A stretch of 64,000 nt of DNA, from positions 21,983-85,982 of the forward strand of contig JBBTTB010000005.1 of the NCBI GenBank assembly GCA_038064455.1, given 5' to 3'. Under the pieces are notes generated by a model that had not been told where the DNA came from, searched no databases, and saw nothing but the letters and a program-made list of their open reading frames with translations. Origin of the DNA: Patescibacteria group bacterium (GTDB lineage: Bacteria; Patescibacteriota; Minisyncoccia; 2-02-FULL-40-12; GWA2-44-9). Position numbers and translations under genes: made by a program. Of this stretch, positions 21,880 through 37,337 are shown one piece after another. Each line of letters starts with the position of its first letter. The first letter of the stretch is position 1.

Positions 21880-22037
21880 AGTCGAGATAGGCTTTCGTGC
21901 CAGAAGGGCGGATATCCTCTCGCGCACCCCACGCCTATGTCTAAGTTTGAAAATACATAAATGTCGGAGTATAGTTGACGAGTAGTAATCACTGTCGAGA
22001 CTTCTAAATTTATAATAGCTGCAATTAAAACAGACAT

Positions 22038-22436
22038 ATGTCAAAAGAAGGACTTCCCACAGGGGTAGATACGAGTGTAGAGAAGGGGCCTGATTCTATA
22101 GTAGAAAATGACAACCAAGAACGGTTCGCTTCCTTGGTAGCGAACCCAGTTTTTGCTAAGTTAGAAATAGCAGCCGCTGAATCTAACCCAGTGGTCTTAG
22201 GTGCAGCAGTGCGACAACTGTTTAAAGATATGAGTCTCGATGATCTGCGGCAGGCGATCGAGTTTTCAAAATCGGTAGTTTTGACTTTACGAGATTTAGC
22301 TAATACACCGGAGCAAATTAAGAGAAACAGGAGTGCTCCAGTCACTCGCCTCGATCATGCCATTCATAAGCTTGATAACTACGAAAGAGTAAGACGAAGT
22401 CTTAGTGGCATGATTGAACCCCCAAAGAATCCTTAA
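22038..22436 (+). CDS. hypothetical protein
   Basis: 132 aa, first gene after the tRNA, with an AT-rich upstream region. Confidence 0.4.
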   Translation: MSKEGLPTGVDTSVEKGPDSIVENDNQERFASLVANPVFAKLEIAAAESNPVVLGAAVRQLFKDMSLDDLRQAIEFSKSVVLTLRDLANTPEQIKRNRSAPVTRLDHAIHKLDNYERVRRSLSGMIEPPKNP

Positions 22437-22458
22437 GTCGTGATGATACAAAATACAC

Positions 22459-22677
22459 ATGATTAAAACTTTACCCGTGTGGGCAAAAATAGCTTGGTGG
22501 GCGAGTGTAGTTGTTATACTTGGCCTCGCGATCATAACAGTGGATACGTTAGCGGGGATTAACTCCGGAAGGTACGACTCAATGGCCTTTCTGGTTTTCA
22601 ACTATTTAGTTATCCCAGTTGGAGGACTTTTAGTGTTGGTTTGGGCCATTGTTTTCGTTGTCCGACGAAAGAAATAA
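22459..22677 (+). CDS. small membrane protein (2 TM)
   Basis: 72 aa with two hydrophobic helices and a basic C-terminus. Confidence 0.35.
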   Translation: MIKTLPVWAKIAWWASVVVILGLAIITVDTLAGINSGRYDSMAFLVFNYLVIPVGGLLVLVWAIVFVVRRKK

Positions 22678-22710
22678 AATGAGAAATAAGGCGTATACTA
22701 CAGCCACTCA

Positions 22711-23337
22711 ATGGCTAATCAAATCACCCATGTTGCTTTAGCAGAAAAGAAGTATGACTCACTTTTCTCAAAATTTGGGAAAGAAGATTTTTTTATTGGC
22801 ACAGTATTCCCCGATATTAGATACCTGGGCGTCATAGACCGAGAAAGAACCCATAATACAAACTTTTTACTACCAGCTATACTCGATGGTGAAAACACTG
22901 CATTTCAAGCAGGAGTAAAGTATCACTGCCTCGTTGATGCAGTTCGGGAAAAGTTTATTATCGAACAGGGCCTCTACGCTTTAGTGCCACAATCAAAGTA
23001 TATTACTCAAGCGATAAAGTGCCTGGAAGATGAAATCTACTATCCCAAAGTGTCGGACTGGGCAGTATATGTTGCGATGCTCCACAAGACATTGCCGGAA
23101 GAAACTGCCTACGGGGTAGCATCCGATGATATTGCGCGTTGGCATAATCTTTTAGCGGACTATTTTCGTAAAACTCCAGACGATATAAGTCGCGAGGGCT
23201 TGATGATGAGTATTGGATTTCCAAAAACTGTAGCAGATGAGATCAATACCTTGGTTCGCCAGATGCGGGAGAGTGGGCCAGTTGTGGGTATCATCGCGCA
23301 GTTTTGGAACAACTTTGATGCGCTTCTCAATGAATAA
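22711..23337 (+). CDS. hypothetical protein (His/aromatic-rich N-terminal motifs)
   Basis: 208 aa with THVALAE...GTVFPDIRY...H motifs. Its stop overlaps the next start (ATGAATAA). Confidence 0.45.
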   Translation: MANQITHVALAEKKYDSLFSKFGKEDFFIGTVFPDIRYLGVIDRERTHNTNFLLPAILDGENTAFQAGVKYHCLVDAVREKFIIEQGLYALVPQSKYITQAIKCLEDEIYYPKVSDWAVYVAMLHKTLPEETAYGVASDDIARWHNLLADYFRKTPDDISREGLMMSIGFPKTVADEINTLVRQMRESGPVVGIIAQFWNNFDALLNE

Positions 23338-23881
23338 TCTTGAAAAAATACGCGGCCTCTCTTGGCCAGATGTTGTAGACACTTGGCGTTCAACTGAAGA
23401 AAACCTAGAGCACTGGCAGAAGTTTTGGTCGGCGAAGGGCTTTTCATCGTGGCAGGCGTGGCGAGAGAAAACCCACGCCAACCTGCGAGGTCCCGAACTC
23501 TCCTGGGCGCTATACAAAGTATCAGACTCGCTCAATCAGGTGCCACAATGGCGAGGCGGAATGTTTCACTCGTGGGCTAAGTGGTTCTATCCGATGCTTG
23601 CCGAACAGCCGCCACGATTGAGAGATTTACTTGAACATCCAGGAGTGCATAATCACTGGTTCATCCGAGACATTGCCAAAACATTCCCTGCGGCCACGAC
23701 GATTATGGCGATACGAACCTCAAATGGAGATATTGTAATTGTTGAGGGGATGCACCGCTGTTGCGCATTAGCACTTCTTGCGCGCGATAAGAAATCTGTG
23801 GCTACCGAGCTGAATATTGTCCTTGCCGACTGGCCGTTTGGTGATATGCCGCGCCTAGGGAGCGGCTGGGAGAAACCATGA
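23330..23881 (+). CDS. ParB/Srx-fold (ParB-like nuclease domain) protein, Trp-rich N-terminus
   Basis: C-terminal IVIVEGMHRCCALALLA resembles the (D/E)GxHR core of ParB N-domain/sulfiredoxin nucleases. It is translationally coupled on both sides. Confidence 0.4.
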   Translation: MNNLEKIRGLSWPDVVDTWRSTEENLEHWQKFWSAKGFSSWQAWREKTHANLRGPELSWALYKVSDSLNQVPQWRGGMFHSWAKWFYPMLAEQPPRLRDLLEHPGVHNHWFIRDIAKTFPAATTIMAIRTSNGDIVIVEGMHRCCALALLARDKKSVATELNIVLADWPFGDMPRLGSGWEKP

Positions 23882-24333
23882 AAAACCTCCCAATACTCTT
23901 TCTGAAAGCAGTCATCGTGCTCATCGGCATCGGTGCGCTGGCTTTTCTCCTTATAGAACCCCACTTTGAAGGCAGGAATGTAAATGCCACGCTCTTTCAG
24001 ATTTACTTTAACGATCCATTCTTAGTATATGCATACATTGCATCTATTCCATTCTTTGTGGCGCTTCATCGGGCATTCAAGGTGCTGGGGCACGTAAGGC
24101 GTGGCAACACATTCTCTCAAGCGACTCTGCGTGCGATGCGAACGATCAAACACTGTGCAGTAGCCATCATAGCTTTTGTTATTCCCGGGATCATCTTTAT
24201 TCGGTTTTTTAGTGGCAGTGATGACTCCGCCGGCGGAGTTGCCATGGGTGCCTTCGTTATCTTAGGCTCGCTTATCGCCGTAGCCACCACAACAACGATT
24301 GAGCATATTCTGCAGGATGCCGGTGGGCGCTAG
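23878..24333 (+). CDS. DUF2975-like 4-TM membrane protein
   Basis: 151 aa with a four-helix topology and conserved-looking loop motifs. The start overlaps the previous stop (ATGA). Confidence 0.35.
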   Translation: MKNLPILFLKAVIVLIGIGALAFLLIEPHFEGRNVNATLFQIYFNDPFLVYAYIASIPFFVALHRAFKVLGHVRRGNTFSQATLRAMRTIKHCAVAIIAFVIPGIIFIRFFSGSDDSAGGVAMGAFVILGSLIAVATTTTIEHILQDAGGR

Positions 24334-24371
24334 TCGTTTGTGTTTCAGAGAGCTGGGCGTATACTGATGAC

Positions 24372-25031
24372 ATGATAGATACAGTTCCGCCGATTCCACC
24401 GCTGATACCGTCTCAAGCACCGTCCGACTCGGGTGGATCCAAGTACAAGCCCGTGTGGTCGTGGTTGGTTGGCATTTTGATCCCGATAGTCTTTTTTGCT
24501 TCGTGGATTGGCTTTTCTCGTCCCGGCTCACCCTTCGGAAATGGACTTACGGCGGCATACCTAGGGGCACTCACTGATATATTATTAGTATCGGCGCTAT
24601 GGCCGATGCTTATTGCGGTAAAAGTCGGTATTCCCTACATGGTTGTTGAGGCCGCCGGCTTCGGTTTGCCGTCACCGCTTGGGTTGCTCTTGAGCGGATT
24701 TGTCTGGATGCTTATCGGGAGGGGGTTATATGTGCTCTACCATTCGCGTCTTAAGATTATTTTTTGGCCCCTTATTCTTGCCGCAATTGGTGCGCTAGGA
24801 ATTGGCGCATATATCGGAACTGGAGATTTTCGTACGATAGAAAAGGCGAAAGAAACGAAAAATGTTTCATACTGCAATAGGTTTGAAGGCGAAGCGAAGG
24901 GGTATTGTCTGATTGATGTTGCGGTTGCCGCCAATGACCCGAGCATATGTGAAAACATACCCGGGTTTCAGCGTACCGCATGTTTTCGTAGTTTAGATGC
25001 GCCATACACACCCTTGCCGGGCATGAAGTAA
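24372..25031 (+). CDS. polytopic membrane protein with Cys-containing C-terminal tail, hypothetical
   Basis: 219 aa with about 5 TM helices and a C-terminus carrying C..C...C..C. Confidence 0.4.
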   Translation: MIDTVPPIPPLIPSQAPSDSGGSKYKPVWSWLVGILIPIVFFASWIGFSRPGSPFGNGLTAAYLGALTDILLVSALWPMLIAVKVGIPYMVVEAAGFGLPSPLGLLLSGFVWMLIGRGLYVLYHSRLKIIFWPLILAAIGALGIGAYIGTGDFRTIEKAKETKNVSYCNRFEGEAKGYCLIDVAVAANDPSICENIPGFQRTACFRSLDAPYTPLPGMK

Positions 25032-25134
25032 GACAATGTGAGTAACGCGATATTTTTACTAGAGCTAAAAATTCAACTTACCTCTCGGTCACTATGCACT
25101 CTTTGGTAGCTCTCTTTTAGATGGAGAGGATCAG

Positions 25135-26715
25135 TTAATTCAGTTCGGCTGAACGGCGATCCTCATATCGCGTAATGCGACGACCTAAGAGAGCGGTTGT
25201 GCGACGTTCAAGTGCATTGGTAATAGCATCGTATCGCTCGTCATCCTTTTTTCCTTGAGCGGCCTGCGCGAGCTCAAGAAGCGCTTTTGCGTGCATGCGA
25301 GCCCAGCGGGCCTGCTGCTCCTGGTTCTCGTAATCAAGGCCTTTGTCGAGTTCCGCTTCCGACACTCCGGCTTCTTCTCGAGCCTTTCGGTCATGGTGCT
25401 TCCACGCTTCCAGAATTTCAGTTGTCCAGTACAGTTCTCGAGATTCGTTATCGGCATAACTATCGTATGCGTTGGCGGCACGACTGATCATGCCTCGATA
25501 GCTTAACCCTCGGCGAAGCGCGTCGCGGTGATCGGTAAATACATAGAGGTCGTCGATCCACGTTTTTTCCTCCATGTCTTCGTACTCAGGAGTACCCGAT
25601 GGTGGCAATTTCGTTTCCCGCACCTTGTCTGGAATAGGACGATCGGGGCGTTCTGGTTGGGCTGGTTTTTGGTCTTCTCCTTTTCTCCGACGTGGCAACA
25701 ACAAAGGAATGAAAAGAAGGAGAGGTACTGGTATGATCAGCGTTTCGCTCTTATCTCCTTCATAGCTTACGGTGATTTTTACCCCTCGTTTTGAGCTCAG
25801 AATTTCATCAAGGCGCCCTTTGTGTTCCAGTGGTTCATTGTTGTTATATTTACGAATGAGGTTAAATATCTTCTCAAGAGAATCAACGCCATTCTCATCC
25901 TTTGCAAGTTCTGCAAGCTCTGCCTGTTCGGATTCACTAAACTGAAGCTCTTCACCTTGCACCTGCATGGCGGCCGCTTCGAGTTGATCGGCGCTGATTC
26001 CTTTGCGGGCGAACCCTTCTCTCATCGCCTCAAGCGCATGAGAAGCGCGAAGCTCTCCGAGCGCGATATTTTCCTGATCAATGGCCTCTTGCTCTAACGT
26101 ATTCGCGCCTTTGTGTTCCGGACCCTCCGGTGAAGCCAGACCGGTTACGGCGATGCGGGTAATGCGTACATCCTGCAGTCCAGGTTGCTCGTGATGGAGC
26201 CCGTAGACTTCTTTACTCCGTGCGAATCCATAAAGCACGTCCGCGAGCTGTTTCTCCACCTCTTGATCCACGTATTGTACAAGACGTTCTTGCCCTTCAG
26301 GATCAACCGATGTTGCCGTGTCAAAGCCGCGACTGTATTCATAAGGCAAGTGAGCTGTGCGCTCCATTTCCTCTTTTATGTCTCGAGAGACTTCAATTTG
26401 GAAGGGGGCGATGAGTGACCATGGATTAAATCGAGTTTCACCCTTGTCGTCTTTGTAAAAAAATGCCAAATGACCGTCCGGCCACTTTGCTTCCCACCCT
26501 TGTTCCGCTACTGTTGTTTCGAGTTCTGCCTTATGAGTCTTTGCTTCGACGCTTCCAGCACCGCCAAGACCGGCAAACAGAGCGAGATAGGTGATTCCAG
26601 CCTGTTCGCGCATGCGTTGCGACCATAGCTTTAATCGCCTCGATTCTTGAGGCTCTTGTGTCTCAGCGGCCTCAACGTGACTAACCGGTTCATGTGAGAG
26701 AGGTGTTTTTTCCAT
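25135..26715 (-). CDS. hypothetical protein (526 aa, acidic, central TM segment)
   Basis: Long clean ORF on the minus strand with a central LIIPVPLLLFIPLLLPRRRK hydrophobic segment. No recognisable catalytic motif. Confidence 0.5.
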   Translation of the reverse strand: MEKTPLSHEPVSHVEAAETQEPQESRRLKLWSQRMREQAGITYLALFAGLGGAGSVEAKTHKAELETTVAEQGWEAKWPDGHLAFFYKDDKGETRFNPWSLIAPFQIEVSRDIKEEMERTAHLPYEYSRGFDTATSVDPEGQERLVQYVDQEVEKQLADVLYGFARSKEVYGLHHEQPGLQDVRITRIAVTGLASPEGPEHKGANTLEQEAIDQENIALGELRASHALEAMREGFARKGISADQLEAAAMQVQGEELQFSESEQAELAELAKDENGVDSLEKIFNLIRKYNNNEPLEHKGRLDEILSSKRGVKITVSYEGDKSETLIIPVPLLLFIPLLLPRRRKGEDQKPAQPERPDRPIPDKVRETKLPPSGTPEYEDMEEKTWIDDLYVFTDHRDALRRGLSYRGMISRAANAYDSYADNESRELYWTTEILEAWKHHDRKAREEAGVSEAELDKGLDYENQEQQARWARMHAKALLELAQAAQGKKDDERYDAITNALERRTTALLGRRITRYEDRRSAELN

Positions 26716-26803
26716 AACGAAAAGTATACACCTTTTTCCATGATAAAAGGAGTATTCTGTACTTAATAGTGCGGCCTACATCAAGACGCTCCCGTAGGGG
26801 ATA

Positions 26804-26832
26804 TTGACCCTTCCGATTTATTATTGTATCCT
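26804..26832 (+). promoter_or_regulatory. sigma70-like promoter upstream of the Cys-rich micro-ORF
   Basis: TTGACC at 26804..26809, a 17-nt spacer and TATCCT/TATATA. Confidence 0.35.
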
Positions 26833-26882
26833 ATATATCGATCTTTCCCCCGTACCTTTCTGGGGAGGAGGTGAGGAAGAAA

Positions 26883-26984
26883 ATGGCGCGCGACTGTTCG
26901 CACAGTGGCAAGTGCGGTACCAAGAACCACACCGGCAACAGCAGCCACGGCTGGTGCAAGTACTGCAAGAAGTGCAACAGCTGA
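26883..26984 (+). CDS. 33-aa cysteine/histidine-rich peptide MARDCSHSGKCGTKNHTGNSSHGWCKYCKKCNS
   Basis: ATG at 26883 with a GGAGGAGGTGAGG SD 5-12 nt upstream and a TGA stop at 26982. A perfect terminator follows 15 nt later. The ORF is absent from the supplied ORF track, which lists only ORFs of 60 aa or longer. Confidence 0.45.
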   Translation: MARDCSHSGKCGTKNHTGNSSHGWCKYCKKCNS

Positions 26985-26998
26985 CGGCAAGGTCGTGA

Positions 26999-27034
26999 CA
27001 TGGGGGAGGCTCGCATAGCTCCCCCATGTTTTTT
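26999..27034 (+). terminator. rho-independent terminator
   Basis: CATGGGGGAG-gctcgcata-GCTCCCCCATG followed by TTTTTT. Confidence 0.7.
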
Positions 27035-27047
27035 ACAAGGAGGCACA

Positions 27048-27277
27048 AAGTGGCTCAAGTGGGCAAGCCGTTTCACGAGCTGACGGAAAGCGAGGCGAAG
27101 AAGATCGTCAAAGCGATCGTGAGATCGTCGCACTCGGAGGAGGAAATCCGCCGGCGCCTGACGGAGGCGGGCTTCAGCGGAGCGAGTGCGCTCATCGCTG
27201 CAGACAGCTGCTGCAATGGGTTCCAGGTGATGGTTCGCTCCCCACGTGGGAAGACCATCAGCATCTCGGCTCACTAA
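27048..27277 (+). CDS. small hypothetical protein (GTG start)
   Basis: AAGGAGG SD 7 nt upstream of the GTG. About 76 aa (VAQVGKPFHELTESEAKKIVKAIV...). Confidence 0.4.
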
Positions 27278-27287
27278 GGAGGACGTC

Positions 27288-27437
27288 ATGAGCGTTCGAG
27301 AACAAGCAGAAGAAGTCGTCGAGACGCTCGACGACGCGACGTTCTTCACCGCGCTTCAGGCGGAGTGCGAAGAAACGCTCTTCCTCCTGAGGACCCGAGG
27401 ACCGAGGGGTGGAACACGCTCATGCGTGCACGCATGA
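27288..27437 (+). CDS. small acidic hypothetical protein
   Basis: TAAGGAGG SD upstream of the ATG. 49 aa (MSVREQAEEVVETLDDATFF...). Confidence 0.3.
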   Translation: MSVREQAEEVVETLDDATFFTALQAECEETLFLLRTRGPRGGTRSCVHA

Positions 27438-27547
27438 GCACTCTGCATCAGCTCACTGGAGCAGCCCTCGGCAAGAACAAGAAGTAGCACAACCTCGGTC
27501 TCAACGACGCACGGCGGCTAGCGATAGCCGCCTTTCTCTTTGCAAAA

Positions 27548-27578
27548 GCCTAGCATTCCCATGTGTGAGCGCGTAGAA
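27548..27578 (+). repeat. 31-bp promoter-like box, copy A (GCCTAGCATTCCCATGTGTGAGCGCGTAGAA)
   Basis: Near-identical to copy B at 28384..28414, 29 of 31 matching. It sits just after a terminator-like hairpin. Confidence 0.6.
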
Positions 27579-27598
27579 CGAGAGTACGCATCCGATAC

Positions 27599-27628
27599 TT
27601 GACACTGCTACTATCTTCTCTGTATAAT
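27599..27628 (+). promoter_or_regulatory. consensus sigma70 promoter (TTGACA-18-TATAAT)
   Basis: TTGACA at 27599..27604 and TATAAT at 27623..27628, about 115 bp upstream of the ATG at 27743. Confidence 0.5.
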
Positions 27629-27742
27629 ATTGTTGTTAGTGCGCACCTTACAATAAACCGAAACCGATATACCGCCGCACACTGCGGCCCCGGCCTTTCA
27701 GGCGCGGGAAGAATACCGACTTTCAGCCGGAAGGAGAACGTC

Positions 27743-28312
27743 ATGTCCAAATACGGACACCTGCCCCACAACTACTTCGAATACATCATGAATCGTCTCG
27801 GTGGCGAAGAGGGAGCCGAAGCGTTCAAGCGCGGGGATGTGATCCTGGCCCCGAACTCCCAGAAGCTTCTGCGATTGGTGGTGAGGGCGACCCCGCTCCC
27901 CGTCATCAAGGAACTCGTGGTCAAGGACATGTTCACCAGCAAGAACTCCTCGCGCGAATTCCGGAACGCGTTTTTCAACGTTGTGGAGCGAAACATCCCA
28001 GCGTCGCAGGTTCACATCATGACGCTGTTGGAGGAGGCGGATGGCCTGTCCATCGCAACCATGCTGGGAGTTCGGAGATCTGTGGTGTGGCTGTCCCACT
28101 TCGTCGACATTCTCCAGAACGACCTTCTCTTCTTCCTCACCAAGCGCGTCATGGCGTTCATCATGGACGCGAGCGGCGTGGACGTGCAGATCGTGGAGGC
28201 TTGCCGGCTGCACGGTGAGTGGTACTACGACGTCGTCTCGCTGGGCAACATGAACGTGCGGCAGAAAGGCTCCTATTTCGTGGTTTCGTCACCCGAGAGC
28301 CCGAGCGCCTAG
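27743..28312 (+). CDS. hypothetical protein (189 aa, GC-rich)
   Basis: GGAAGGAGA SD upstream of the ATG at 27743. The listed ORF start at 27599 lies inside the promoter. Confidence 0.5.
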   Translation: MSKYGHLPHNYFEYIMNRLGGEEGAEAFKRGDVILAPNSQKLLRLVVRATPLPVIKELVVKDMFTSKNSSREFRNAFFNVVERNIPASQVHIMTLLEEADGLSIATMLGVRRSVVWLSHFVDILQNDLLFFLTKRVMAFIMDASGVDVQIVEACRLHGEWYYDVVSLGNMNVRQKGSYFVVSSPESPSA

Positions 28313-28383
28313 CCGCACCGAGCTCGTCAGCCCCCAGTCCCGCTGTGGTTTCCTTCACGGACCATGGCGGGGCTTTTTGTTTT

Positions 28384-28414
28384 GCCTAGCATTCTCATGT
28401 GCGAGCGCGTAGAA
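28384..28414 (+). repeat. 31-bp promoter-like box, copy B (GCCTAGCATTCTCATGTGCGAGCGCGTAGAA)
   Basis: Second copy. It ends 12 nt before the ATG at 28427, which would give a near-leaderless mRNA if the TAGAAT acts as a -10. Confidence 0.6.
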
Positions 28415-28426
28415 TAGAGCCTATCT

Positions 28427-28774
28427 ATGTCACACGAAAAACCAATAATACCACAGCCGCCGGAGCGCGTAGAGCAAGAACCAACGCTCGCAGAGTGTCT
28501 ACTCAATGCCTTGCGCACCGAAGGACTTGTCGGAGAGCATACCCAGCAGTACATTCAAGAGTGGTGGACTGCGCGTGAAGCCCTTTCTGATGAGGGTCGT
28601 TGGGAGGCAGATCTGATTCGTGCGGGGATATTTCTTACCGCTGGGTTCATTTCTGAAGCACTTGAGGAATTTGAATCTATAGCACAGCAAGCCTACGAAG
28701 CACAGAAAGACGACATCGTTGACCGTTGCGATCAATGCATCGAGGCGATCCGCAAAGCTATCCCGAACGAATAG
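28427..28774 (+). CDS. hypothetical acidic protein (115 aa)
   Basis: Clean ORF directly after box B. A terminator follows at 28783..28810 (AGCCCCTCACGGGGCTTTTTGTT). Confidence 0.5.
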   Translation: MSHEKPIIPQPPERVEQEPTLAECLLNALRTEGLVGEHTQQYIQEWWTAREALSDEGRWEADLIRAGIFLTAGFISEALEEFESIAQQAYEAQKDDIVDRCDQCIEAIRKAIPNE

Positions 28775-28865
28775 CTACAGCCCTAAGCCCCTCACGGGGC
28801 TTTTTGTTGCTTTTCTCTAGTGCTTTTGAGAATATGAGGAATGAACAAGCCTCTTTGCTATTAGT

Positions 28866-29069
28866 ATGAGGCGAATCGTTTATATTTTAAAAATGAGTAA
28901 AACAGAGTTAAAACAACACGCCGAACAGATCGAAGTAAACCTAAAAGCATACCTGGAATTACTTGCAGAGTTAGAACATGAGAGAAAAAAGATTATTGAC
29001 GAATTCTCAGAAACTCTAAGATTGAGAAAAATCAAAGAGTTAAAAAGATCTTTATCTACTAATGGATAA
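28866..29069 (+). CDS. small hypothetical coiled-coil protein (alt start 28893)
   Basis: AT-rich ORF of 67 aa, Lys/Glu-rich. Confidence 0.3.
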   Translation: MRRIVYILKMSKTELKQHAEQIEVNLKAYLELLAELEHERKKIIDEFSETLRLRKIKELKRSLSTNG

Positions 29070-30330: not shown

Positions 30331-30612
30331 ATGGAGCAAAACACTACAAAAAAGACATTCCTCTCTGTCCCAGAATTGGCCAAAATGCTTGGCATTAGCC
30401 GTATTGCGGCTTTTCGTAAGGTTAAAAAGGGACACATTCCAGCCCACAAAATTGGGCGTATGTACGTTATTTCCATGGAAGATGCGCTCGCGTTTGTGAA
30501 CGAGGGGCAGTCTGACGTGCTCACGGAACCTAAAAAAGACGAAATTAAAAAGGCAGTTGCTCGAGTTGTCCAAGAATACGGCGAAACACTCAAGCTTTTA
30601 GGGAAAGAATAA
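30331..30612 (+). CDS. helix-turn-helix (excisionase/MerR-type HTH_17) DNA-binding protein, putative antitoxin/regulator
   Basis: VPELAKMLGISRIAAFRKVKKGHIPAHKIGRMYVI matches excisionase-family HTH. The start is uncertain, between 30274 and 30331. The stop lies 1 nt before the Doc gene. Confidence 0.5.
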   Translation: MEQNTTKKTFLSVPELAKMLGISRIAAFRKVKKGHIPAHKIGRMYVISMEDALAFVNEGQSDVLTEPKKDEIKKAVARVVQEYGETLKLLGKE

Positions 30613-30613
30613 T

Positions 30614-31039
30614 ATGAAGCTGAAACGGCTCACCCTCACTGATATAGAGTACGTCGCACATAGACTTGCACAAGAAACGATGTCGTGGCGTGAACCTATC
30701 CCTGACTTCGGCACACGATACTCAAACGCGCTTGAGCGGTGCATTGATGCGCCGTTCCAATCCTTTGGTGGTAAGCAGTTATATCCCGGCCTTGTGAGGA
30801 AGGCTTCGATACTATTTTATTTGATGATCAAAAATCATCCGTTTCAGAACGGAAATAAAAGATTAGCGATGACGACGCTCTTCTTTTTTCTCTTTCGGAA
30901 TAAGAAGTGGATGAAAGTTGATACACAAGAACTGTATAATTTTGCAGTCTGGGTTGCGAAAAGCAATGCGAAGGTGAGGGCCGACACCATACGAGCGGTA
31001 GAAACATTTCTCGGTAGCTATATAGTTGATATAGAATAA
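30614..31039 (+). CDS. Doc (death-on-curing)/Fic-fold toxin family protein
   Basis: HPFQNGNKRLAMT matches the Doc variant of the Fic motif (HxFx[DN]GNKR). 141 aa. Confidence 0.6.
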   Translation: MKLKRLTLTDIEYVAHRLAQETMSWREPIPDFGTRYSNALERCIDAPFQSFGGKQLYPGLVRKASILFYLMIKNHPFQNGNKRLAMTTLFFFLFRNKKWMKVDTQELYNFAVWVAKSNAKVRADTIRAVETFLGSYIVDIE

Positions 31040-31044: not shown

Positions 31045-32058
31045 ATGAAACGCCTTTCTTATGGTGTTATAGCGTTGGTGCTCGCTATGCTCGTGGTGGG
31101 CGGCGTTTCGCTTTTGAGTGACAGGAGCCAGACCATCACCAACGGAACTGAAACGAGATCACCATTTTCGTTCCCCGATATTCCTTCTTTCTTTTCCAGC
31201 AAAGAGGGAAGCATGATCTTTGTGGGAGATATCATGCTCTCGCGTTCCGTGGGCATTCGCATGGCGAAAGAAAATGATTACACCTTTCCATTCCTGCACG
31301 CCGCCGCGTTTCTCCAAGATGCGGATATCACCTTCGCGAATCTTGAGAACCCAGTCTCTGCTCGGGGAAAGAACGTGGGGAGCATCTACTCGTTCCGCGC
31401 TGATCCAAAAACAATCGAAGGGCTTGTGCTCGCGGGCTTTGATGTAGTCTCTATCGCGAATAACCATATGTGGGACTACGGGCGCGAAGCGTTCCTTGAT
31501 ACGCTCTCGCATCTCACACAGGCCGGCATTGATTTCGTGGGCGGCGGGAACAACGCCGCAGAGGCAGAGCGGCCCGTGGTGCGAGACGTGCAGGGCACGC
31601 GCGTGGCGTTTTTGGCCTATACCGAATTTCTGCAGAGTGCGGTGGCGGGGGAGGCATCGGCGGGCATCAGCCGGTGGGATCCCGAGCGCATGGCCGCCGC
31701 TATTGCCAGCGCAAAGCAGGAGAATAATATCGTGGTGGTTTCATTGCACTGGGGCGAGGAATACAAAACACAGCACAACCAACAGCAGGAGACCATTGCG
31801 AAGGCGGCGATTGATGCGGGGGCGGATCTGGTCATCGGGCACCATCCGCACGTGGTGCAAGAGGTGGAACGCTACAAAGATGGCTGGATAGCCTACAGCC
31901 TTGGTAATTTTATATTTGATCAGTATTTTTCAGAAGCAACGATGCGGGGCCTTGTGCTGAAGGTGCGCATCAAAGATGGGAAAGTGCAGAGCGTAGAGGA
32001 ATATGATAGCGCGCTCTCAAAAGAGTTTCAGGTGCGCATCACCGCACGTAAGGAATAG
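31045..32058 (+). CDS. CapA/PgsA-family metallophosphoesterase-like protein (poly-gamma-glutamate/capsule-type), membrane anchored
   Basis: N-terminal TM, then IFVGDIML...NLENP, GFDVVSIANNH and GHHPH motifs typical of the CapA family. Confidence 0.65.
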   Translation: MKRLSYGVIALVLAMLVVGGVSLLSDRSQTITNGTETRSPFSFPDIPSFFSSKEGSMIFVGDIMLSRSVGIRMAKENDYTFPFLHAAAFLQDADITFANLENPVSARGKNVGSIYSFRADPKTIEGLVLAGFDVVSIANNHMWDYGREAFLDTLSHLTQAGIDFVGGGNNAAEAERPVVRDVQGTRVAFLAYTEFLQSAVAGEASAGISRWDPERMAAAIASAKQENNIVVVSLHWGEEYKTQHNQQQETIAKAAIDAGADLVIGHHPHVVQEVERYKDGWIAYSLGNFIFDQYFSEATMRGLVLKVRIKDGKVQSVEEYDSALSKEFQVRITARKE

Positions 32059-32091: not shown

Positions 32092-32203
32092 ACGTAACTC
32101 TTAGCTATGCATAATATGTGCACTGGGGTGCTAAGGCACTACCAGAGGCTGTGGTGACCGGAAGCTTAAGGGCTGAAGGCGCTACGTTAACAAGGAGTTT
32201 CAC

Positions 32204-33187
32204 GTGGATCACATGACGTTGGCGGGTGCCTGCATCAGTATCGCGGGCATCCTGTTTCTGCTGTTCCTGGCCGTGAGCGCGCTGGCCAAGAAGTGGGGTG
32301 AGATGCCCTACTTTCTCTACAACACGGTAGGCGGTATCACCGCCATCTGCGGCGTTGATGAGTACCGTGAGGCGAAGAGGCGCGGAAGGCGTTGGACGAT
32401 TGACGGGAAGTTTCTGGTAGTGCCGAGTGTCGTCGTCTTCGGCAACGCATCCGAGAAGTTCCGACACCTGGTTGCCACTGTCTTCGTGTATCACGAGAGG
32501 GAGAAGCTGGAGAAAACTCTCTTCGTGCCGTTTGCTTCGGAGAGGTACTTCGCGGCGAATGAGCAAGAAGCACTGTTCTTCGGTGGCAATTTCGCGGCTC
32601 GTCTTTCGGGTGTTCCACCATCGCTTGCCTACAGCAGAGCCCAGCAGTGGGTTGCTAACAAGATCGCCGGCATCGATGCCAACGACTGGCGTCGGCGTTT
32701 CGCCCAGAAGTGGCTCGCGGGTTCGACTCTGCGTCTGCTGATCTGTGTCGCTATGGCGGGCTTCCTCGCGCTCGGCGTCGCATACTACGAGTCAGCGCGT
32801 TCTGCGCGTGAACGTACGAACACCACCTACTACTTCACAGAGATGGAGCGGGGTAAGTTAGCCCCTGTGATGGGAGTGCCGGAAGAGCTGGAGAAGCTCC
32901 CTATGCGCGAGACTGACGTGACAGATCGAAGTCTGCGCGCTGGGCGCGCAAAGCGCGTCATGAGCGTCGGCGGGGGTCTGGACTTCGTTTGCATCTCCGT
33001 AGAGGGGAGAGAGCTCTGCGGCTTCTCTGCGCGGGTGCTCAACGTGCAACAGGGCGACGACGTGGTATTTCGAGGCGGGAGACCGATCGTCACTCCGGCT
33101 TTTAACTATGCCCAGTGGCTCTGGTGGGTGATCAGCAAGGAAGAGGCCGAAGCGCTCAAGCGCGTCGGTTTCGAGGTCGTCAGGTAG
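32204..33187 (+). CDS. membrane protein, hypothetical (GTG start, GC-rich)
   Basis: AAGGAG SD 8 nt upstream of the GTG. 327 aa with N-terminal and central TM helices. Confidence 0.45.
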   Translation: MDHMTLAGACISIAGILFLLFLAVSALAKKWGEMPYFLYNTVGGITAICGVDEYREAKRRGRRWTIDGKFLVVPSVVVFGNASEKFRHLVATVFVYHEREKLEKTLFVPFASERYFAANEQEALFFGGNFAARLSGVPPSLAYSRAQQWVANKIAGIDANDWRRRFAQKWLAGSTLRLLICVAMAGFLALGVAYYESARSARERTNTTYYFTEMERGKLAPVMGVPEELEKLPMRETDVTDRSLRAGRAKRVMSVGGGLDFVCISVEGRELCGFSARVLNVQQGDDVVFRGGRPIVTPAFNYAQWLWWVISKEEAEALKRVGFEVVR

Positions 33188-33294
33188 TTCTTCTTCCCGG
33201 AGTGGGGCCTTGCCTTCACTCCGGGATTTTCTTTTTGCCTATTTCGCGCTGTACCAGCTTGTGACAGTGTGCAGTGTAGCGTATGGTAAGAGCT

Positions 33295-33469: not shown

Positions 33470-34555
33470 GTGAATCTTTCCGATATCGCACAACTTCGGT
33501 TGCAGAGCCAACGCATTGGGCGCACGCCGTTTGCAACGGTTGCAGCAGTCGTGCGCCACTTAGGCGCAGTACAAGCACAAGATATCCCGAGTGCGCTCTG
33601 GGCTGTTGGTCTGCGCATGAAGCGTGCGAATGAACAGACTATTCTTGATGCGCTTGCGGAACAGCGCATTGTGCGCACGTGGCCCATGCGTTCCACGCTT
33701 CACTTTGTTGCGCGAGAAGATGTGCGCTGGATGCTTGATCTTATGACACCACGCGTCCTTTCCGCCTATGCGCATCGCATGCGCATGCATGGCATCACCA
33801 CGGCAACCTATGACAAAAGTAGGGTGCTTTTTGAAAAAGCGCTGAAGGGTGGCAAGGCGCTGACGCGCGAAGAACTCTATGCGGTTCTTGAATCTGCGGG
33901 CATTCCTGCAAAGCGAGCAAGTTTGGGATTGCACATCATCGGGCGCTTAGCGCACGAACAGTTGCTCTGTTTTGGCCCACGGCGAGGCAAACAACAAACG
34001 CTGGTGCTTCTTGACGAATGGGTGCCGCGCGTTGGAAAGCCGCGAGATCGAGATGATGCACTGCGTGAATTGGCGATTCGGTATTTCACCAGTCACGGTC
34101 CTGCGCAGGAAAAAGATCTCGCATGGTGGTCCGGTCTTGCTCTCAAAGATATCCGCGCGGGCATCGCGCACGCAGTCAAGGCGCTCACGAGCGTTGCTGT
34201 AGAGGGTACAACGTATTGGATGGCGCCGCGTCGAGTAGTGCCGCAGAAAACAGGAGAGGCCTTTCTCCTTCCTTCGTTTGATGAATTCTTTGTTGCGTAC
34301 CGTGATCGGAGCGCCTCGTTGGAGGCAATGCACACGCATCACATAAACCCGGGCGCAAATGGCATGCTCCAACCTATTATTGTGGTTGATGGGCAGGTGC
34401 TTGGCACATGGAAGCGGGTGATCACAAAAGACACCGTGCAGATTTCACTTCACTTTTTCAATAAACCTTCTCCAGAGGTGAAAACCGCAGTGCACGAAGC
34501 AGGCGAGCGCTATGCCCATTTTCTTAGGCTCTCTTTGGAATTAAAAAAGGGGTAG
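33470..34555 (+). CDS. winged-helix DNA-binding protein, YcaQ/DUF1006-like (putative DNA glycosylase family)
   Basis: 361 aa with a non-ATG start. An overall YcaQ-like length and pattern (TWPMRSTLHFV, LLPSFDEF). Confidence 0.5.
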   Translation: MNLSDIAQLRLQSQRIGRTPFATVAAVVRHLGAVQAQDIPSALWAVGLRMKRANEQTILDALAEQRIVRTWPMRSTLHFVAREDVRWMLDLMTPRVLSAYAHRMRMHGITTATYDKSRVLFEKALKGGKALTREELYAVLESAGIPAKRASLGLHIIGRLAHEQLLCFGPRRGKQQTLVLLDEWVPRVGKPRDRDDALRELAIRYFTSHGPAQEKDLAWWSGLALKDIRAGIAHAVKALTSVAVEGTTYWMAPRRVVPQKTGEAFLLPSFDEFFVAYRDRSASLEAMHTHHINPGANGMLQPIIVVDGQVLGTWKRVITKDTVQISLHFFNKPSPEVKTAVHEAGERYAHFLRLSLELKKG

Positions 34556-34581
34556 TGAAGCCACGAAGACTTCACTACCCC
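34549..34581 (-). terminator. rho-independent terminator for the minus-strand SPFH operon (overlaps YcaQ-like stop)
   Basis: GGGGTAGTGAAG-ccacgaaga-CTTCACTACCCC hairpin with an A-run on the + side, which reads as a U-tract on the minus strand. Confidence 0.55.
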
Positions 34582-34587
34582 CGCCTG

Positions 34588-35793
34588 TTACTTGCCCCCT
34601 GGCGTCGCCTGGATGCCGATCTCTCTCGCGGTCTTGACCGTGAAGAGGTCGATGAGCGTCTGGACACTCGTGGCGTTCCCGTTGCCGCCACCTCCAGAGA
34701 CGACCGTCGGAACCAGAGGCATCTTCATCTCTTTGAGCGCCTGCGCGTAGAGCTCGTTCACCCTCACGTACGCGGCCAGACGCGCGTCGAGCGCATTGTC
34801 GGCGGCCATCACCAACTTTCGCCGCTCGGCCTCACCTTCGCCCAACAGAATCTGCTTGCGCTTCTCCTGGGCAGCTGCTTCGGCGTCGAGCCTGGCAACC
34901 TCGAGCTTTTGCTGCGCCTCGGTCACCATGGTCGCTTTGATCACCTCCTGCTTCCACTTGGCTTCCGCCGCTTGCGCTTGCCCGTTCTTTTCCGCGGTGA
35001 TGGCGTCCTGTTCCGCCTTCTTGGCGTTTGCCATGGCGGTCTGCACGTCCATCATGGCCTTTTGTTGTGCGGCGATCTGCTTGTCGACCGTGTCGTCATA
35101 GGTGACGGAGTTGATCGAAAGGTTGAATGTCCGAACGCCGAACACCTTGAGAGGGCTCTCTTCTTGGCGCTGGATCACGCCCTCCGCTTCGACGAGGCGG
35201 ACGTAGTTGACCGTTCGATCCGAGCCAGATAGCGGATCCTTTTCTTTCACGGTCTCGGTCCGCGTCTGGTAGATTCCGTTGTTGATCTGGTCTTCGATGA
35301 ATCGGATGAGGTCGTTACGCCGCTCGGCGTACGACTCCTTTGAGCTCATCAGGGGCCCGGTCATGTAGACCGCCTTCTCGACGATGGTGCGTACGAGCTG
35401 TTGCTCGAGCGCGTGGTGCGTACCGTACTTCGTGTGGAGCAGGGTGAGCGCCTTCTCGTCGAGTGGGATCTCCCAGGCGATCGAGCCAGATACCTGCGCG
35501 TGACCGCCGTCGTTGAACCGTACCTTGATGGACTGGTCGGAAGTGTTCTGCTCACTCTTCGCAGAGAACCAGTACTGGCTCCGCTTGGGATACTTCGTGA
35601 CAGACCCGAACCACTGCATCTTGAAGCCTGGTGTGGTGTGCCAGACCAGGGTTCCGGTCGGGTACTGAACGACCATGACCTGCGTGGCGTCCAAGTGCTC
35701 CACGGTGCGTGGCGTGAGGTAGATCCCCACGGCGCAGAGGATGCCGATCAAGATCGGCTTGATCGTGTTCGGCGCGCGACTGGATTCGTACAT
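34588..35793 (-). CDS. SPFH/band-7 (flotillin/HflK-like) domain protein
   Basis: N-terminal TM, an SPFH core, and a long Ala/Glu/Lys/Gln coiled-coil. Confidence 0.7.
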   Translation of the reverse strand: MYESSRAPNTIKPILIGILCAVGIYLTPRTVEHLDATQVMVVQYPTGTLVWHTTPGFKMQWFGSVTKYPKRSQYWFSAKSEQNTSDQSIKVRFNDGGHAQVSGSIAWEIPLDEKALTLLHTKYGTHHALEQQLVRTIVEKAVYMTGPLMSSKESYAERRNDLIRFIEDQINNGIYQTRTETVKEKDPLSGSDRTVNYVRLVEAEGVIQRQEESPLKVFGVRTFNLSINSVTYDDTVDKQIAAQQKAMMDVQTAMANAKKAEQDAITAEKNGQAQAAEAKWKQEVIKATMVTEAQQKLEVARLDAEAAAQEKRKQILLGEGEAERRKLVMAADNALDARLAAYVRVNELYAQALKEMKMPLVPTVVSGGGGNGNATSVQTLIDLFTVKTAREIGIQATPGGK

Positions 35794-35824
35794 GCTTCAC
35801 CTCTTCGTTTGTTGCGGCACTGGT

Positions 35825-36148
35825 TTAGTGGATAAGCCCGTCTTTTTTCGCTGGTTTTTCAACCGTCTCCGTTGTGGACTCCTCGGGATCGAAGATCCCA
35901 TGGAGTTTTTGATCCAAGATCGCCGCACGCTCGAAGCGGCGTCGATCGAGTTCTTGCTGAATGCGAAACGCCTCCTCCCGTTCCGCATCTCTTCGGAGTT
36001 CTTCTCGGAGCTCATCGAGCGTCTTCCCTCGGCGTCGCATGGTGGTGTCGATGATTCCAATGGCAGTGCGAGCCAATGGGATCATGACTTTGAACACCAG
36101 GACGCCTCCGAAGAAGACAAAGAGCAACGCTTCGAGTAATAGCTGCAT
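35825..36148 (-). CDS. small membrane protein co-transcribed upstream of SPFH gene (NfeD-like partner?)
   Basis: 107 aa with an N-terminal TM and a charged helical tail, 31 bp upstream of the SPFH gene. Confidence 0.4.
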   Translation of the reverse strand: MQLLLEALLFVFFGGVLVFKVMIPLARTAIGIIDTTMRRRGKTLDELREELRRDAEREEAFRIQQELDRRRFERAAILDQKLHGIFDPEESTTETVEKPAKKDGLIH

Positions 36149-36292
36149 TTCTTCTCCTCGCCCTCCCGTTATTGTTATTGTAAAAGAATGGGAAGACTAT
36201 AGTATCTATATTGTGTTATGTCAATAGGCTCCTGATGGATGGCATATTCGTGGTCTTCTTAGTATGATAGTGCGAGATGCGGGTATAAAGAC

Positions 36293-37327
36293 ATGGGAGA
36301 AAAAACTCATTTTGAACACGTCGTCGGTGGAAGTGAGAAAGACAAAGGAGAGGCTATGGAATTTCTCCAAAGGCTTTTTTCAAAGCCACCTGAAATCTTG
36401 GCAGAATTTGAGCTTGAAAAGACTCCAGAAGATATTGCCGTTATTCATGAGGTCCAAGAGCTTGTTGATGAAATGGCTGCAAAGTACGGAGGTGCGCCGA
36501 AGCAACTACCGCTTGAGAACATACACCTTCTCAAGCCGGGTGCTGTATTTGAGCTTACACAGGGAAAGCTTCGCGTTGGCATTCATAGGTCCCTTTCTCT
36601 CCGCATCGGCGTAGAGAAGCGTCCATCAAGGATCCCTTTCTGTGGCACTCTTGCACACGAGCTGTTCCACGCACAGGGTTTTAAATCGTTCTATATCCGA
36701 CCAGATGGCAAGGGGACTCTCTATCGTAGTGGCATTCAGACGGTTGATCAAAAAGATCCTTCTGCGGAGCTCGGTGACGAGAAGATGTACTTTAGCCAGC
36801 TTGAGGAGGCAATTGTCACAGAGTGCGCACGGCAACTCGTAGAAACACTTGGGCAACAGGGCTTTTTTGGTGAAGAAGAGGAGGCTATGAGAACATTGCG
36901 TAATTTGGCGAATGCGCACCAGCGTCGTTTAGGCTGGACACAACAGCAGATGCAAGAGTTTGCGGAGGAAGTAAAATATGTAGAAGATCCAATACGCGCT
37001 CTGGAAACAATAAAAGTCGCGTATCCGTCTGAAGAGAAGCGATCGGCATATGCAGCCGGCCTTATAGAGGGTATGAAAAATCGCGGAGCTGTTGAGATGA
37101 AGGAAAGGTATTTTGAGCGTAAAAAGTTTTATAGACTTCTTGATGAGCTTATTGAGAAGTCACAGGGTGCATATACGCAACGATCAGAGATCTTCGCAGA
37201 GTTTGCCAAGGCACATTTCTCTGGACGCTATCTTCCGTTAGCGCGCATAGTAGAAGGTATTCTTGGCGAGGGGGCATTTCGGAGAATAGCGAATGATTTC
37301 AGCGAGACGCCAGGCAAGAAGAAATAA
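36293..37327 (+). CDS. hypothetical HExxH-motif protein (putative zinc metallopeptidase)
   Basis: 344 aa with LAHELFHAQGF, an HExxH motif. Confidence 0.4.
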   Translation: MGEKTHFEHVVGGSEKDKGEAMEFLQRLFSKPPEILAEFELEKTPEDIAVIHEVQELVDEMAAKYGGAPKQLPLENIHLLKPGAVFELTQGKLRVGIHRSLSLRIGVEKRPSRIPFCGTLAHELFHAQGFKSFYIRPDGKGTLYRSGIQTVDQKDPSAELGDEKMYFSQLEEAIVTECARQLVETLGQQGFFGEEEEAMRTLRNLANAHQRRLGWTQQQMQEFAEEVKYVEDPIRALETIKVAYPSEEKRSAYAAGLIEGMKNRGAVEMKERYFERKKFYRLLDELIEKSQGAYTQRSEIFAEFAKAHFSGRYLPLARIVEGILGEGAFRRIANDFSETPGKKK

Positions 37328-37337
37328 TTTCAACACC

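Follow-up and report, generated by a model that had tools for sequence, protein, structure and literature searches.

The question raised by the DNA immediately downstream of the tRNA-Gln(UUG) gene in the stretch analyzed here is whether its accessory genes belong to one integrated element or have been exchanged piece by piece between conserved genes. The stretch, a window of 64 kb whose coordinates are used throughout, matches a 91.6-kb metagenome contig of 0.1-um-filtered Hainich groundwater (ENA ERZ1292619; approximately 10x coverage). Our interpretation is that the interval from 21.2 to 41.5 kb is probably a plasticity zone in the chromosome of a streamlined, Paceibacteria-type groundwater bacterium, and not a single integrated element. 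It has a skeleton-and-slot layout, in which the slots are differently occupied in the three genomes compared, and no recombinase or att site is present in the window. A previous, sequence-only reading had outlined a mosaic accessory region at 21880 to 37330, viewed as a tRNA-anchored hotspot or defense island that had lost its integrase; the right border at 37330 proved to be arbitrary, the variable zone reaching approximately 41.5 kb.

The window was compared with two congeneric relatives, H51-bin004_1 (JBBTYA010000002.1, loci L003 and L084; referred to here as H51) and CP129474.1, a closed genome of 615 kb (loci L102 and L104, lying 178 bp or less apart), and with an outgroup, L085, whose CapA identity is 68%. 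Both relatives share 81 to 83% nucleotide (nt) identity with the window in the core, and the three genomes are about equidistant. Collinearity with the relatives extends over 8.4 to 21.2 kb (86% of bases aligned) and 41.7 to 45 kb (100%), and homology with both of them ends at the 3′ end of the tRNA-Gln gene, at 21877 to 21879; 32% of 21880 to 37330 is alignable to either relative, compared with 86% upstream and 100% downstream. Nine genes are common to the three genomes in one order, eight are common to two genomes, and 16 are confined to the window, all of the latter being located between 21.9 and 39.5 kb.

The set shared by all three genomes runs, in one order, through MFS, tRNA-Gln, DUF2975, a 33-amino-acid (aa) peptide, a 115-aa protein, AlkZ, dut, pyrD, a 172-aa protein, and ABC-F. 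The window and H51 alone share a 118-aa gene, two small open reading frames (ORFs), CapA, a 327-aa gene (30% identity), and a 68-aa gene, while a 344-aa gene (79% aa identity) and an 81-aa DUF3977 gene (41219 to 41464), the latter missing in H51, are common to the window and CP129474.1 alone. The conserved features of the zone, with the third-codon-position GC content (GC3) where it stands out, are the following:

21806 to 21879, plus strand: tRNA-Gln(UUG), found by ARAGORN and Rfam; left anchor of the variable zone
23878 to 24333, plus strand: DUF2975 membrane protein, skeleton (Pfam E = 1.9e-19); in all three genomes
26821 to 27547, plus strand: high-GC3 small-gene block, aligning with synonymous changes (GC3 0.88 and 0.78)
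26883 to 26984, plus strand: gene for a 33-aa Cys5/His4 peptide, in all three genomes; sequence MARDCSHSGKCGTKNHTGNSSHGWCKYCKKCNS
28427 to 28774, plus strand: 115-aa skeleton gene, in all three genomes (77% and 71% aa identity to the relatives)
31045 to 32058, plus strand: CapA/PGA_cap metallophosphatase-like gene (Pfam E = 1.2e-80)
32204 to 33187, plus strand: 327-aa membrane orphan (GC3 0.73)
33470 to 34555, plus strand: AlkZ-like DNA glycosylase, skeleton (Pfam E = 1.6e-64); in all three genomes
36293 to 37327, plus strand: 344-aa orphan with an HELFH motif (79% aa identity in CP129474.1 at the same position; missing in H51)
37338 to 37760, plus strand: dUTPase (dut), skeleton, Pfam, 140 aa

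The true start of dut is placed at the ATG at 37338 because the genes of the relatives are 140 aa in length. The DUF2975 gene is frameshifted in H51, the AlkZ-like gene shares 82 to 87% aa identity with those of the relatives, and the 327-aa gene, whose position is conserved, shares 30% identity with a 320-aa gene of H51. CapA, which has 93% aa identity in H51 and is absent at the site in CP129474.1, has thousands of homologues, those with a source name being Paceibacteria-type (Yanofskybacteria, Taylorbacteria, and Pacebacteria). Its assignment to the CapA family in the sequence-only reading was upheld by Pfam, yet it is a skeleton gene rather than an accessory one. The outgroup L085 retains the order DnaX, tRNA-Gln, CapA, with two other genes, one for UDG and one LigT-like, separating the tRNA from CapA; because the linkage of tRNA-Gln and CapA is seen there, it is older than the genus, with CapA ancestral at this location.

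Seven window-only blocks, each of 0.8 to 2.5 kb, lie among these features:

21880 to 23877, plus strand: cassette A, window-only, four ORFs
24334 to 26820, mixed strands: cassette B, window-only, no counterpart in the relatives
27579 to 28383, plus strand: cassette C, window-only, a 189-aa orphan at 27743 to 28312
28775 to 30190, plus strand: cassette D, window-only, low GC, overlapping 67-aa and 315-aa orphans
30236 to 31039, plus strand: cassette E, window-only, a predicted toxin-antitoxin pair of type II
34556 to 36230, minus strand: cassette F1, window-only, a phage-type SPFH module
37761 to 39542, plus strand: cassette G, window-only, beyond the border drawn previously at 37330

The same slots hold other cargo in the relatives, namely, a pair of 70-aa and 101-aa genes and a 329-aa gene in H51, and GrpB, Fic with DUF2177, Peptidase_S9, DUF6998, a trypsin-like protease, and a T5orf172/methyltransferase/MutH/AAA_15 cluster in CP129474.1. 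Common to both relatives and missing in the window are genes of 241 aa and 329 aa and a 66-plus-94-aa cassette. A 43-bp duplicated terminator flanks a cassette that both relatives have and the window lacks. The junctions in the relatives are tight, measuring 12 to 64 bp with the promoter retained.

A single island introduced by a tyrosine integrase at the 3′ end of tRNA-Gln, and later eroded through loss of the integrase and attR and through secondary insertions, would account for an interval that starts exactly at the tRNA 3′ end, for its atypical, mosaic composition, and for a repeat of the tRNA 3′ end found in CP129474.1 (17 nt) and, in degenerate form, in H51. Against such an origin, the 25-nt 3′ end of tRNA-Gln, searched with up to 3 mismatches, matches itself alone in the 64 kb. 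No integrase or recombinase domain was found by Pfam on the best-supported ORF at each position from 21.4 to 39.1 kb, where intergenic gaps do not exceed 285 bp and none is big enough to conceal such a gene. The sequence-only reading was right that no integrase is present; neither an integrase remnant nor an attR was found in the window. Rather than being present or absent as a single block, the variable parts form at least 6 separate pieces within the interval, and a relative with tRNA-Gln directly before dut/pyrD was not encountered among the genomes compared. The interval is not one island, because the DUF2975, peptide, 115-aa, CapA, 327-aa, AlkZ, and 344-aa genes are syntenic in one or both relatives, with the variable pieces interleaved between them; in addition, tRNA-Gln and CapA are linked in the outgroup as well, despite a CapA identity of only 68%, and the variable cassettes continue past dut.

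The repeat in the relatives is itself informative regarding the use of this tRNA. In CP129474.1, 17 nt of the tRNA-Gln 3′ end recur 233 bp downstream of the tRNA, with flanking sequence of the window type after them (L102 13629 to 13894), and H51 shares the start of this insert of approximately 230 bp, with a degenerate repeat copy. The 233-bp insert of CP129474.1 contains an inverted tRNA-like T-arm fragment, its sole Rfam match being Clostridiales-2, well below threshold. The 17-nt repeat looks like the att-type scar of an integration event, and it is on the basis of this scar that tRNA-Gln is believed to have served as an integration target in the clade. The scar, which is absent from the window, encloses only approximately 230 bp, and we regard a single integrase-borne island as very unlikely. 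What stands of the proposed tRNA-anchored hotspot is that accessory genes gather downstream of tRNA-Gln in this lineage; they do not constitute a single island. Likewise, the zone resembles tRNA-integrated islands (those with a P4-like integrase) in beginning at a tRNA 3′ end and in having relatives with a short 3′-end repeat, but differs from them in lacking an integrase, an attR in the window, and a single-block pattern, and in containing syntenic ancestral genes.

The tRNA-Gln(UUG) gene, which ARAGORN and Rfam identify as the sole tRNA of the 64-kb window, is 100% identical in H51. In H51, an 85-aa GIY-YIG gene (L084 7100 to 7478) is bordered on one side by the intact tRNA-Gln gene and on the other by a degenerate fragment of its 5′ part, and a Logan contig of another relative (L105 13960 to 14000) has the same duplicated 5′ fragment with 23 nt between, resembling a footprint; these observations suggest a small homing-endonuclease-like element targeting the 5′ part of the tRNA-Gln gene.

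A chimeric joining of metagenome reads during assembly or binning is an explanation to which the metagenomic origin and approximately 10x coverage of the contig lend themselves, as do Logan contigs from three datasets (L002, L105, and L106; 17, 109, and 42 kb) that end in or at tRNA-Gln. The arrangement from 21 to 42 kb is nevertheless alike in six contigs with identical CapA (from ENA, Logan, and NCBI), and each cassette is bordered on either side by skeleton genes whose order agrees with that of the closed genome. Because the six CapA-bearing contigs agree, assembly error is unlikely, and an artefact as the source of the whole pattern is considered extremely improbable. The Logan breaks are expected and are probably due to graph branching, since co-occurring species have the tRNA in identical form; their interpretation as a sign of strain heterogeneity was discounted for the same reason.

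Sliding-window GC and tetranucleotide analyses confirmed that the mosaic composition perceived by eye is real and beyond chance. The standard deviation of GC in 500-bp windows is 0.061 within 21880 to 37330 and 0.030 outside it (Levene p = 3e-15), the region ranking first for GC variability among 195 segments of equal length, and six of six tetranucleotide outliers (2-kb windows) fall at 21 to 24, 28 to 31, and 34 to 37 kb. Gene GC3 ranges from 0.29 to 0.88 in the region, compared with 0.472 +/- 0.045 for 38 flanking genes. The individual patches were mostly well judged: the turn to AT-rich sequence directly 3′ of tRNA-Gln is found at 21880 to 22037 (GC 0.418), and the low-GC patch at 28866 to 30300, estimated at approximately 42%, measures 0.410. 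The patches put at approximately 60% are indeed elevated, but slightly lower than estimated (0.561 at 26780 to 28780, 0.587 at 32100 to 33200, and 0.587 at 34588 to 36150), and the core, believed to be about 55% GC, measures 0.49 to 0.52, with 0.504 for the whole window and 0.516 and 0.493 for the flanks of the region.

Cassette C is located between two copies of a direct repeat:

27548 to 27578, plus strand: left copy of the 31-bp direct repeat, one of two copies in the window
28384 to 28414, plus strand: right copy of the 31-bp direct repeat, 29/31 identical, directly upstream of the 115-aa gene

Two copies of this repeat occur in the window, where zero would be expected by chance, and a single copy occurs in H51; the pair surrounding cassette C is the sole meaningful pair returned by the repeat search. 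The cassette itself is bounded by a promoter at 27599 to 27628 (TTGACA-18-TATAAT, 12/12 consensus), which starts 20 nt past the junction, and a terminator at 28336 to 28374 (16-bp stem), which ends 10 nt before the next junction. The 189-aa ORF has GC contents of 0.57/0.35/0.82 by codon position, and coding on the plus strand at 27743 to 28312 is accepted on this account; the same measure ruled out a public 171-aa minus-strand ORF (27698 to 28312) in favor of the 189-aa plus-strand ORF as the real gene. The GC3 of cassette C is strongly deviant (z = +7.8), and the 189-aa orphan has no relatives in the JGI metagenomes or IMG/VR. A Peptidase_S9 gene has entered CP129474.1 within approximately 3 nt of the cassette C point (L102 16722 to 16760), without duplication. 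The site between the 31-bp element and the 115-aa gene is thus unoccupied in H51, filled by the 189-aa cassette in the window, and filled by Peptidase_S9 in CP129474.1. The 31-bp repeat marks a recurrent insertion point.

Cassette F1 interrupts an adjacency that is intact in a relative, as AlkZ directly adjoins the 344-aa gene in CP129474.1, where no SPFH module is present. It consists of two minus-strand genes:

34588 to 35793, minus strand: 401-aa SPFH gene (Pfam Band_7, residues 36 to 259)
35825 to 36148, minus strand: 107-aa small membrane protein, upstream of the SPFH gene

The presence of an SPFH gene on the opposite strand, as anticipated from the sequence, was verified by Pfam. The module has its own promoter at 36224 to 36196 (minus strand, 11/12 consensus) and a terminator at 34582 to 34548 (15-bp stem). 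The SPFH protein has a hydrophobic N-terminal stretch, IKPILIGILCAVGIYL, and its homologues are all approximately 400 to 420 aa in length; public calls at 34588 to 35835 (a 253-aa SPFH protein and a 139-aa plus-strand ORF) were ruled out by GC content by codon position and by these homologue lengths. Its affinities are with phages: it matches phrog_11908 over its full length (E = 4.9e-42), shares 51% identity with a protein of the huge phage LR756500 and 33% with crAss-like phages, and has homologues in five IMG/VR contigs (43 to 54% identity). The phage-like contig L094 encodes a 61% SPFH homologue, and the gene ahead of it is homologous to that of the 107-aa protein (pairwise E = 1e-8). As a direct donor, LR756500 was ruled out, the GC content of the phage being 27% and that of the gene 60%, with nothing else in common between them at the gene level. 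The SPFH module is the best-supported recent gain of the zone, given a GC3 of 0.82 (z = +7.7) and the abutting AlkZ and 344-aa genes of CP129474.1.

In its general organization, the module is comparable to the stomatin- or flotillin-like SPFH/NfeD operons (Hinderhofer et al. 2009, PMC2636767) and to phrog_11908, in that a membrane-anchored SPFH protein of approximately 400 aa is encoded in one operon with a small membrane protein ahead of it. It differs in that its partner is not NfeD by Pfam (no match at E <= 1 for the 107-aa protein) and appears from its sequence to be a single-pass helical protein, and in that the window module is a recent, compositionally foreign insertion. A functional pairing of the SPFH protein with the neighboring 344-aa protein, as a putative protease partner, is argued against by their different composition, the GC3 of the 344-aa gene being genome-typical, and by the occurrence of the 344-aa gene without SPFH in CP129474.1. 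The 344-aa protein has no phage or IMG/VR relatives, and its single-sequence AlphaFold2 model has a predicted local distance difference test (pLDDT) score of 38, too low for use. A prophage remnant, which would be expected to contain several phage-family genes, was not recognized, PHROGs matching the SPFH protein alone among the 10 largest proteins (the 526-, 344-, and 315-aa proteins being without a phage match).

Cassette G, on the far side of dut, comprises two plus-strand ORFs:

38004 to 39104, plus strand: 366-aa MFS transporter
39228 to 39497, plus strand: 89-aa ORF

Its promoter (37761 to 37789, 11/12) directly follows the dut stop codon, and a terminator closes it at 39500 to 39532; in both relatives, dut directly adjoins pyrD and cassette G is lacking. 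Cassettes C, F1, and G are, accordingly, promoter-to-terminator units. A further terminator with a 16-bp stem was observed at 37929 to 37965, approximately 140 nt past the cassette G promoter and ahead of the MFS start at 38004. The segment from 37761 to 37965 has no Rfam match at gathering thresholds and may be a leader, an attenuator, or a small RNA.

Turnover in the zone has proceeded in both directions. Gains are represented by the SPFH module and the MFS cassette, and losses by the 344-aa and DUF3977 genes in H51 and by the 241-aa gene, the 329-aa gene, and the 66-plus-94-aa cassette in the window. Were differential loss the general rule, the ancestor would have held most of these genes, the relatives would have been streamlined, and the window would represent the ancestral state. 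Clear losses are indeed seen (the 344-aa and DUF3977 genes missing in H51 only, the H51 frameshift in DUF2975, and a 13-nt deletion in a window ORF), GC3 is typical of the genome in cassettes B and G and in the 344-aa gene, and units flanked by the 31-bp or 43-bp repeats could be excised by recombination. However, 16 genes are absent from both relatives, which carry other genes there, and loss by itself would presuppose an ancestor of very large size, with losses recurring in parallel; GC3 deviates strongly in cassettes C, D, and F1 (z = +7.8, -3.9, and +7.7, respectively), the SPFH module belongs to a phage-borne family, and the tight junctions of the relatives (12 to 64 bp) are functional, with the promoter retained. 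We consider it unlikely that differential loss explains the zone as a whole.

The plasticity zone that we favor also has evidence weighing against it, part of which concerns the same question. The outgroup shares no slot genes and the three genomes are about equally distant, and some apparent gains of the window (cassettes A, B, D, and E) could be losses in both relatives. Composition separates cassette from skeleton imperfectly, as the peptide block, CapA, and the 327-aa gene are compositionally odd although they belong to the skeleton, and cassettes B and G are of ordinary composition. Flanking repeats occur at cassette C only, the other junctions of the window being without repeats or microhomology beyond promoter-like similarity; most of the cargo is without an assignable function; and the recombination mechanism is one that we infer.

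In the plasticity zone as we interpret it, the skeleton (MFS, tRNA-Gln, DUF2975, 33-aa, 115-aa, CapA, AlkZ, 344-aa, dut, and pyrD) is vertically inherited in a fixed order, its short intergenic gaps acting as slots in which each lineage has independently gained and lost cassettes of 1 to 4 genes (0.8 to 2.5 kb). The heterogeneous GC3 of the cassettes (0.29 to 0.83) points to several donors, one of them phage-related. Exchange is presumed to occur without a dedicated integrase, the likely route being the uptake of foreign or related DNA and recombination anchored in conserved flanking genes or, alternatively, in short repeated regulatory sequences such as the 31-bp repeat of the window and the 43-bp terminator repeat of the relatives. 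A contribution is also probable from sporadic events of the integrase type at the 3′ end of the tRNA, of which the relatives carry a scar.

Earlier work on aquifer genomes (PMC12455944) reports that Patescibacteria carry genomic islands and frequently transfer genes among themselves, and the kind of feature described here is for this reason regarded as known. The zone shares with such regions of genomic plasticity (the islands of PMC12455944 and the islets of streamlined bacteria) the conserved core genes flanking and interleaved with species-specific cargo, a mixed composition, a nearby tRNA, and an enrichment in orphans and in membrane or surface, toxin-antitoxin, and phage-related genes. 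It departs from them in the tiny size of its pieces (0.8 to 2.5 kb, 1 to 4 genes, with at least 8 slots in 20 kb), in the absence of a mobility gene from the window, and in its several exact promoter-to-terminator cassettes. A bolder proposal is that of an integrase-less cassette-exchange locus, in which promoter-to-terminator cassettes would be swapped at fixed points between anchor genes. It is argued from the 31-bp-marked site, where unrelated cassettes of two species have entered within approximately 3 nt of each other, and we deem it quite unlikely. Integron cassette arrays are similar in having small, mostly single-function cassettes at fixed positions, many of them orphans or toxin-antitoxin genes; unlike them, the zone has no IntI, no attI/attC, and no common promoter, its cassettes carrying their own promoters and core genes lying between them.

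The cargo probably serves envelope or membrane functions and mobile-element conflict rather than one coordinated system. If the zone were a defense island, its cassettes would be anti-phage or anti-plasmid systems, some of them undescribed, accumulated at a hotspot, and the evidence for such content in the window is provided by cassette E alone:

30274 to 30612, plus strand: HTH_17 antitoxin-like gene (Pfam E = 5.6e-9)
30614 to 31039, plus strand: Doc-type Fic toxin (Pfam Fic E = 1.3e-9; motif HPFQNGNKR)

The toxin-antitoxin-like pair noted from the sequence is thereby recovered by Pfam as HTH_17 with Fic/Doc and is a predicted toxin-antitoxin pair; NCBI names the toxin a death-on-curing family toxin. 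The Doc motif is HxFx(D/N)GNKR. In common with Phd/Doc modules, the cassette has two adjacent small genes and a Fic/Doc-fold toxin with H-x-F-x-N-G-N-K-R; in contrast to them, the partner located 1 nt upstream is an HTH_17 protein (MerR/excisionase-like) and not of the Phd/YefM fold. Cassette E is replaced by 12 nt in H51.

PADLOC, applied to 20 proteins, returned no complete system, giving domain-level matches of Doc to several candidate families (including PDC-S23, E = 1e-18), an HTH match to mad1 (E = 2e-5), and otherwise marginal matches. The same zone of CP129474.1 contains T5orf172/MUG113, an N6_N4 methyltransferase, a MutH-like endonuclease, and an AAA_15/AAA_21 ATPase (L104 37 to 4018), likely a restriction-modification or defense cluster that is absent from the window, in addition to a Fic gene. 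This cluster, the Doc pair, and the phage-type SPFH module speak for a defense island; much of the window cargo, however, is made up of housekeeping-like enzymes, membrane proteins, and a transporter, effectors of the nuclease, helicase, or NTPase type were not detected among the window cassettes, and homologues of the 208-aa protein of cassette A are unlinked to a ParB/Srx-fold gene or any recurring partner. A defense island strikes us as a rather remote prospect, and the locus, singled out earlier as the most likely place for an undescribed system, does not reveal a new kind of system. It is a possibility that one of the orphan cassettes, either the 67-plus-315-aa pair or the small membrane protein with SPFH, represents an undescribed conflict system.

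The former pair makes up cassette D:

28866 to 29069, plus strand: 67-aa ORF
29062 to 30009, plus strand: 315-aa ORF

These genes have GC contents of 0.31 and 0.42 (GC3 z = -3.9), and their products match no family in Pfam, PADLOC, NCBIfam, or PHROGs; the 315-aa protein has no homologues in IMG/VR, JGI, or phage collections. A guess that it could be a YrbL-like atypical kinase was unsupported by Pfam at E <= 1. The corresponding slot holds the 70-plus-101-aa pair in H51 and other genes in CP129474.1. Downstream of pyrD in the window, the 68-aa gene at 41476 to 41682 has a 70-aa paralogue in H51 (L084 9348 to 9560) with a similar promoter region, and this paralogue sits in the slot held by cassette D in the window.

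At the left end of the zone, a promoter-like site at 21947 to 21975 precedes the four plus-strand ORFs of cassette A:

22038 to 22436, plus strand: 132-aa ORF
22459 to 22677, plus strand: 72-aa ORF
22711 to 23337, plus strand: 208-aa ORF
23330 to 23881, plus strand: 183-aa ORF

The 208-aa protein is Zn-dependent phospholipase-C-like and belongs to a Patescibacteria family, 23/42 members of which match Pfam Zn_dep_PLPC. In other Patescibacteria, its homologues show no link to a ParB/Srx-fold gene and no recurring partner, and cassette A was ruled out as a conserved four-gene system, since these homologues are found in unrelated neighborhoods. The 183-aa protein, previously described as a ParB-like nuclease, retains a resemblance to ParB/Srx at the level of the fold but has no Pfam or PDB sequence support: none of the 81 family members matches Pfam (ParBc included), no PDB profile match was obtained, and the PADLOC search gave one marginal match (E = 0.002). 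The family, in which at least 276 representative clusters are counted, has an EGxHR motif with an invariant G140 and near-invariant E139, H142, and R143. Compared with PDB sequences, the 208-, 183-, 344-, and 526-aa proteins gave nothing significant.

Cassette B, which is of genome-typical composition, encodes two proteins on opposite strands:

24372 to 25031, plus strand: 219-aa multi-pass membrane protein
25135 to 26715, minus strand: 526-aa membrane-anchored orphan

Neither protein has a family in Pfam, NCBIfam, PADLOC, or PHROGs, or a phage match. The small-gene block follows, in which the 33-aa peptide gene (GC3 0.88), equipped with a strong ribosome-binding site and its own perfect terminator, is accompanied by two ORFs:

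27050 to 27277, plus strand: 75-aa ORF, common to the window and H51 only
27289 to 27488, plus strand: small ORF with a 13-nt deletion, common to the window and H51 only

The peptide gene is 92% identical to that of CP129474.1 at the nt level, compared with approximately 82% for the core, and the changes are synonymous, with every Cys and His retained; the peptide has no Pfam family and might bind metal or be the precursor of a peptide. Relative to the 71-aa gene of H51, the deletion truncates the small ORF of the window to approximately 49 aa and is either a mark of a pseudogene or an assembly error. Terminators lie at approximately 26999 to 27035 (read by eye) and at 27513 to 27532. A structured RNA in the high-GC, ORF-poor stretch from 26600 to 28900 was ruled out, as the stretch carries small genes with ribosome-binding sites; Rfam returned the tRNA alone, both in this stretch at E <= 1 and across the whole window at gathering thresholds.

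The flanks are of housekeeping character, as the sequence-only reading had it, with PBP, GreA, two aminoacyl-tRNA synthetases, a DUF8128/HerA-like ATPase, GtrA, DnaX, and MFS upstream and dut, pyrD, and an ABC-F protein downstream, and the content of the region is mostly hypothetical, the majority of the other ORFs being without a family in Pfam, NCBIfam, PADLOC, or PHROGs; for the ten largest unknown proteins, NCBIfam yielded nothing. To the genes listed by that reading, Pfam adds the DUF2975 gene and the AlkZ-like glycosylase, the latter having been absent from that list. Farther upstream, at 15492 to 19634, an 809-aa DUF8128/HerA-TraG-like ATPase, GtrA, and DnaX were observed in an order that is kept out to the outgroup with 68% CapA identity; the association of a coupling-protein-like ATPase with the GtrA/DnaX core genes is an unusual fixed partnership in these bacteria.

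The locus offers a base-resolved case of accessory-gene turnover in a streamlined Patescibacteria genome of approximately 0.6 Mb, proceeding without a mobility gene in the window. It yields candidates in the 33-aa Cys/His peptide, the phage-type SPFH pair, and the ParB/Srx-fold family, and the cassette-exchange locus, if true, would functionally be an integron without an integrase. The zone can also be used as a point of reference in studies of gene flux among groundwater bacteria that are uncultivated.

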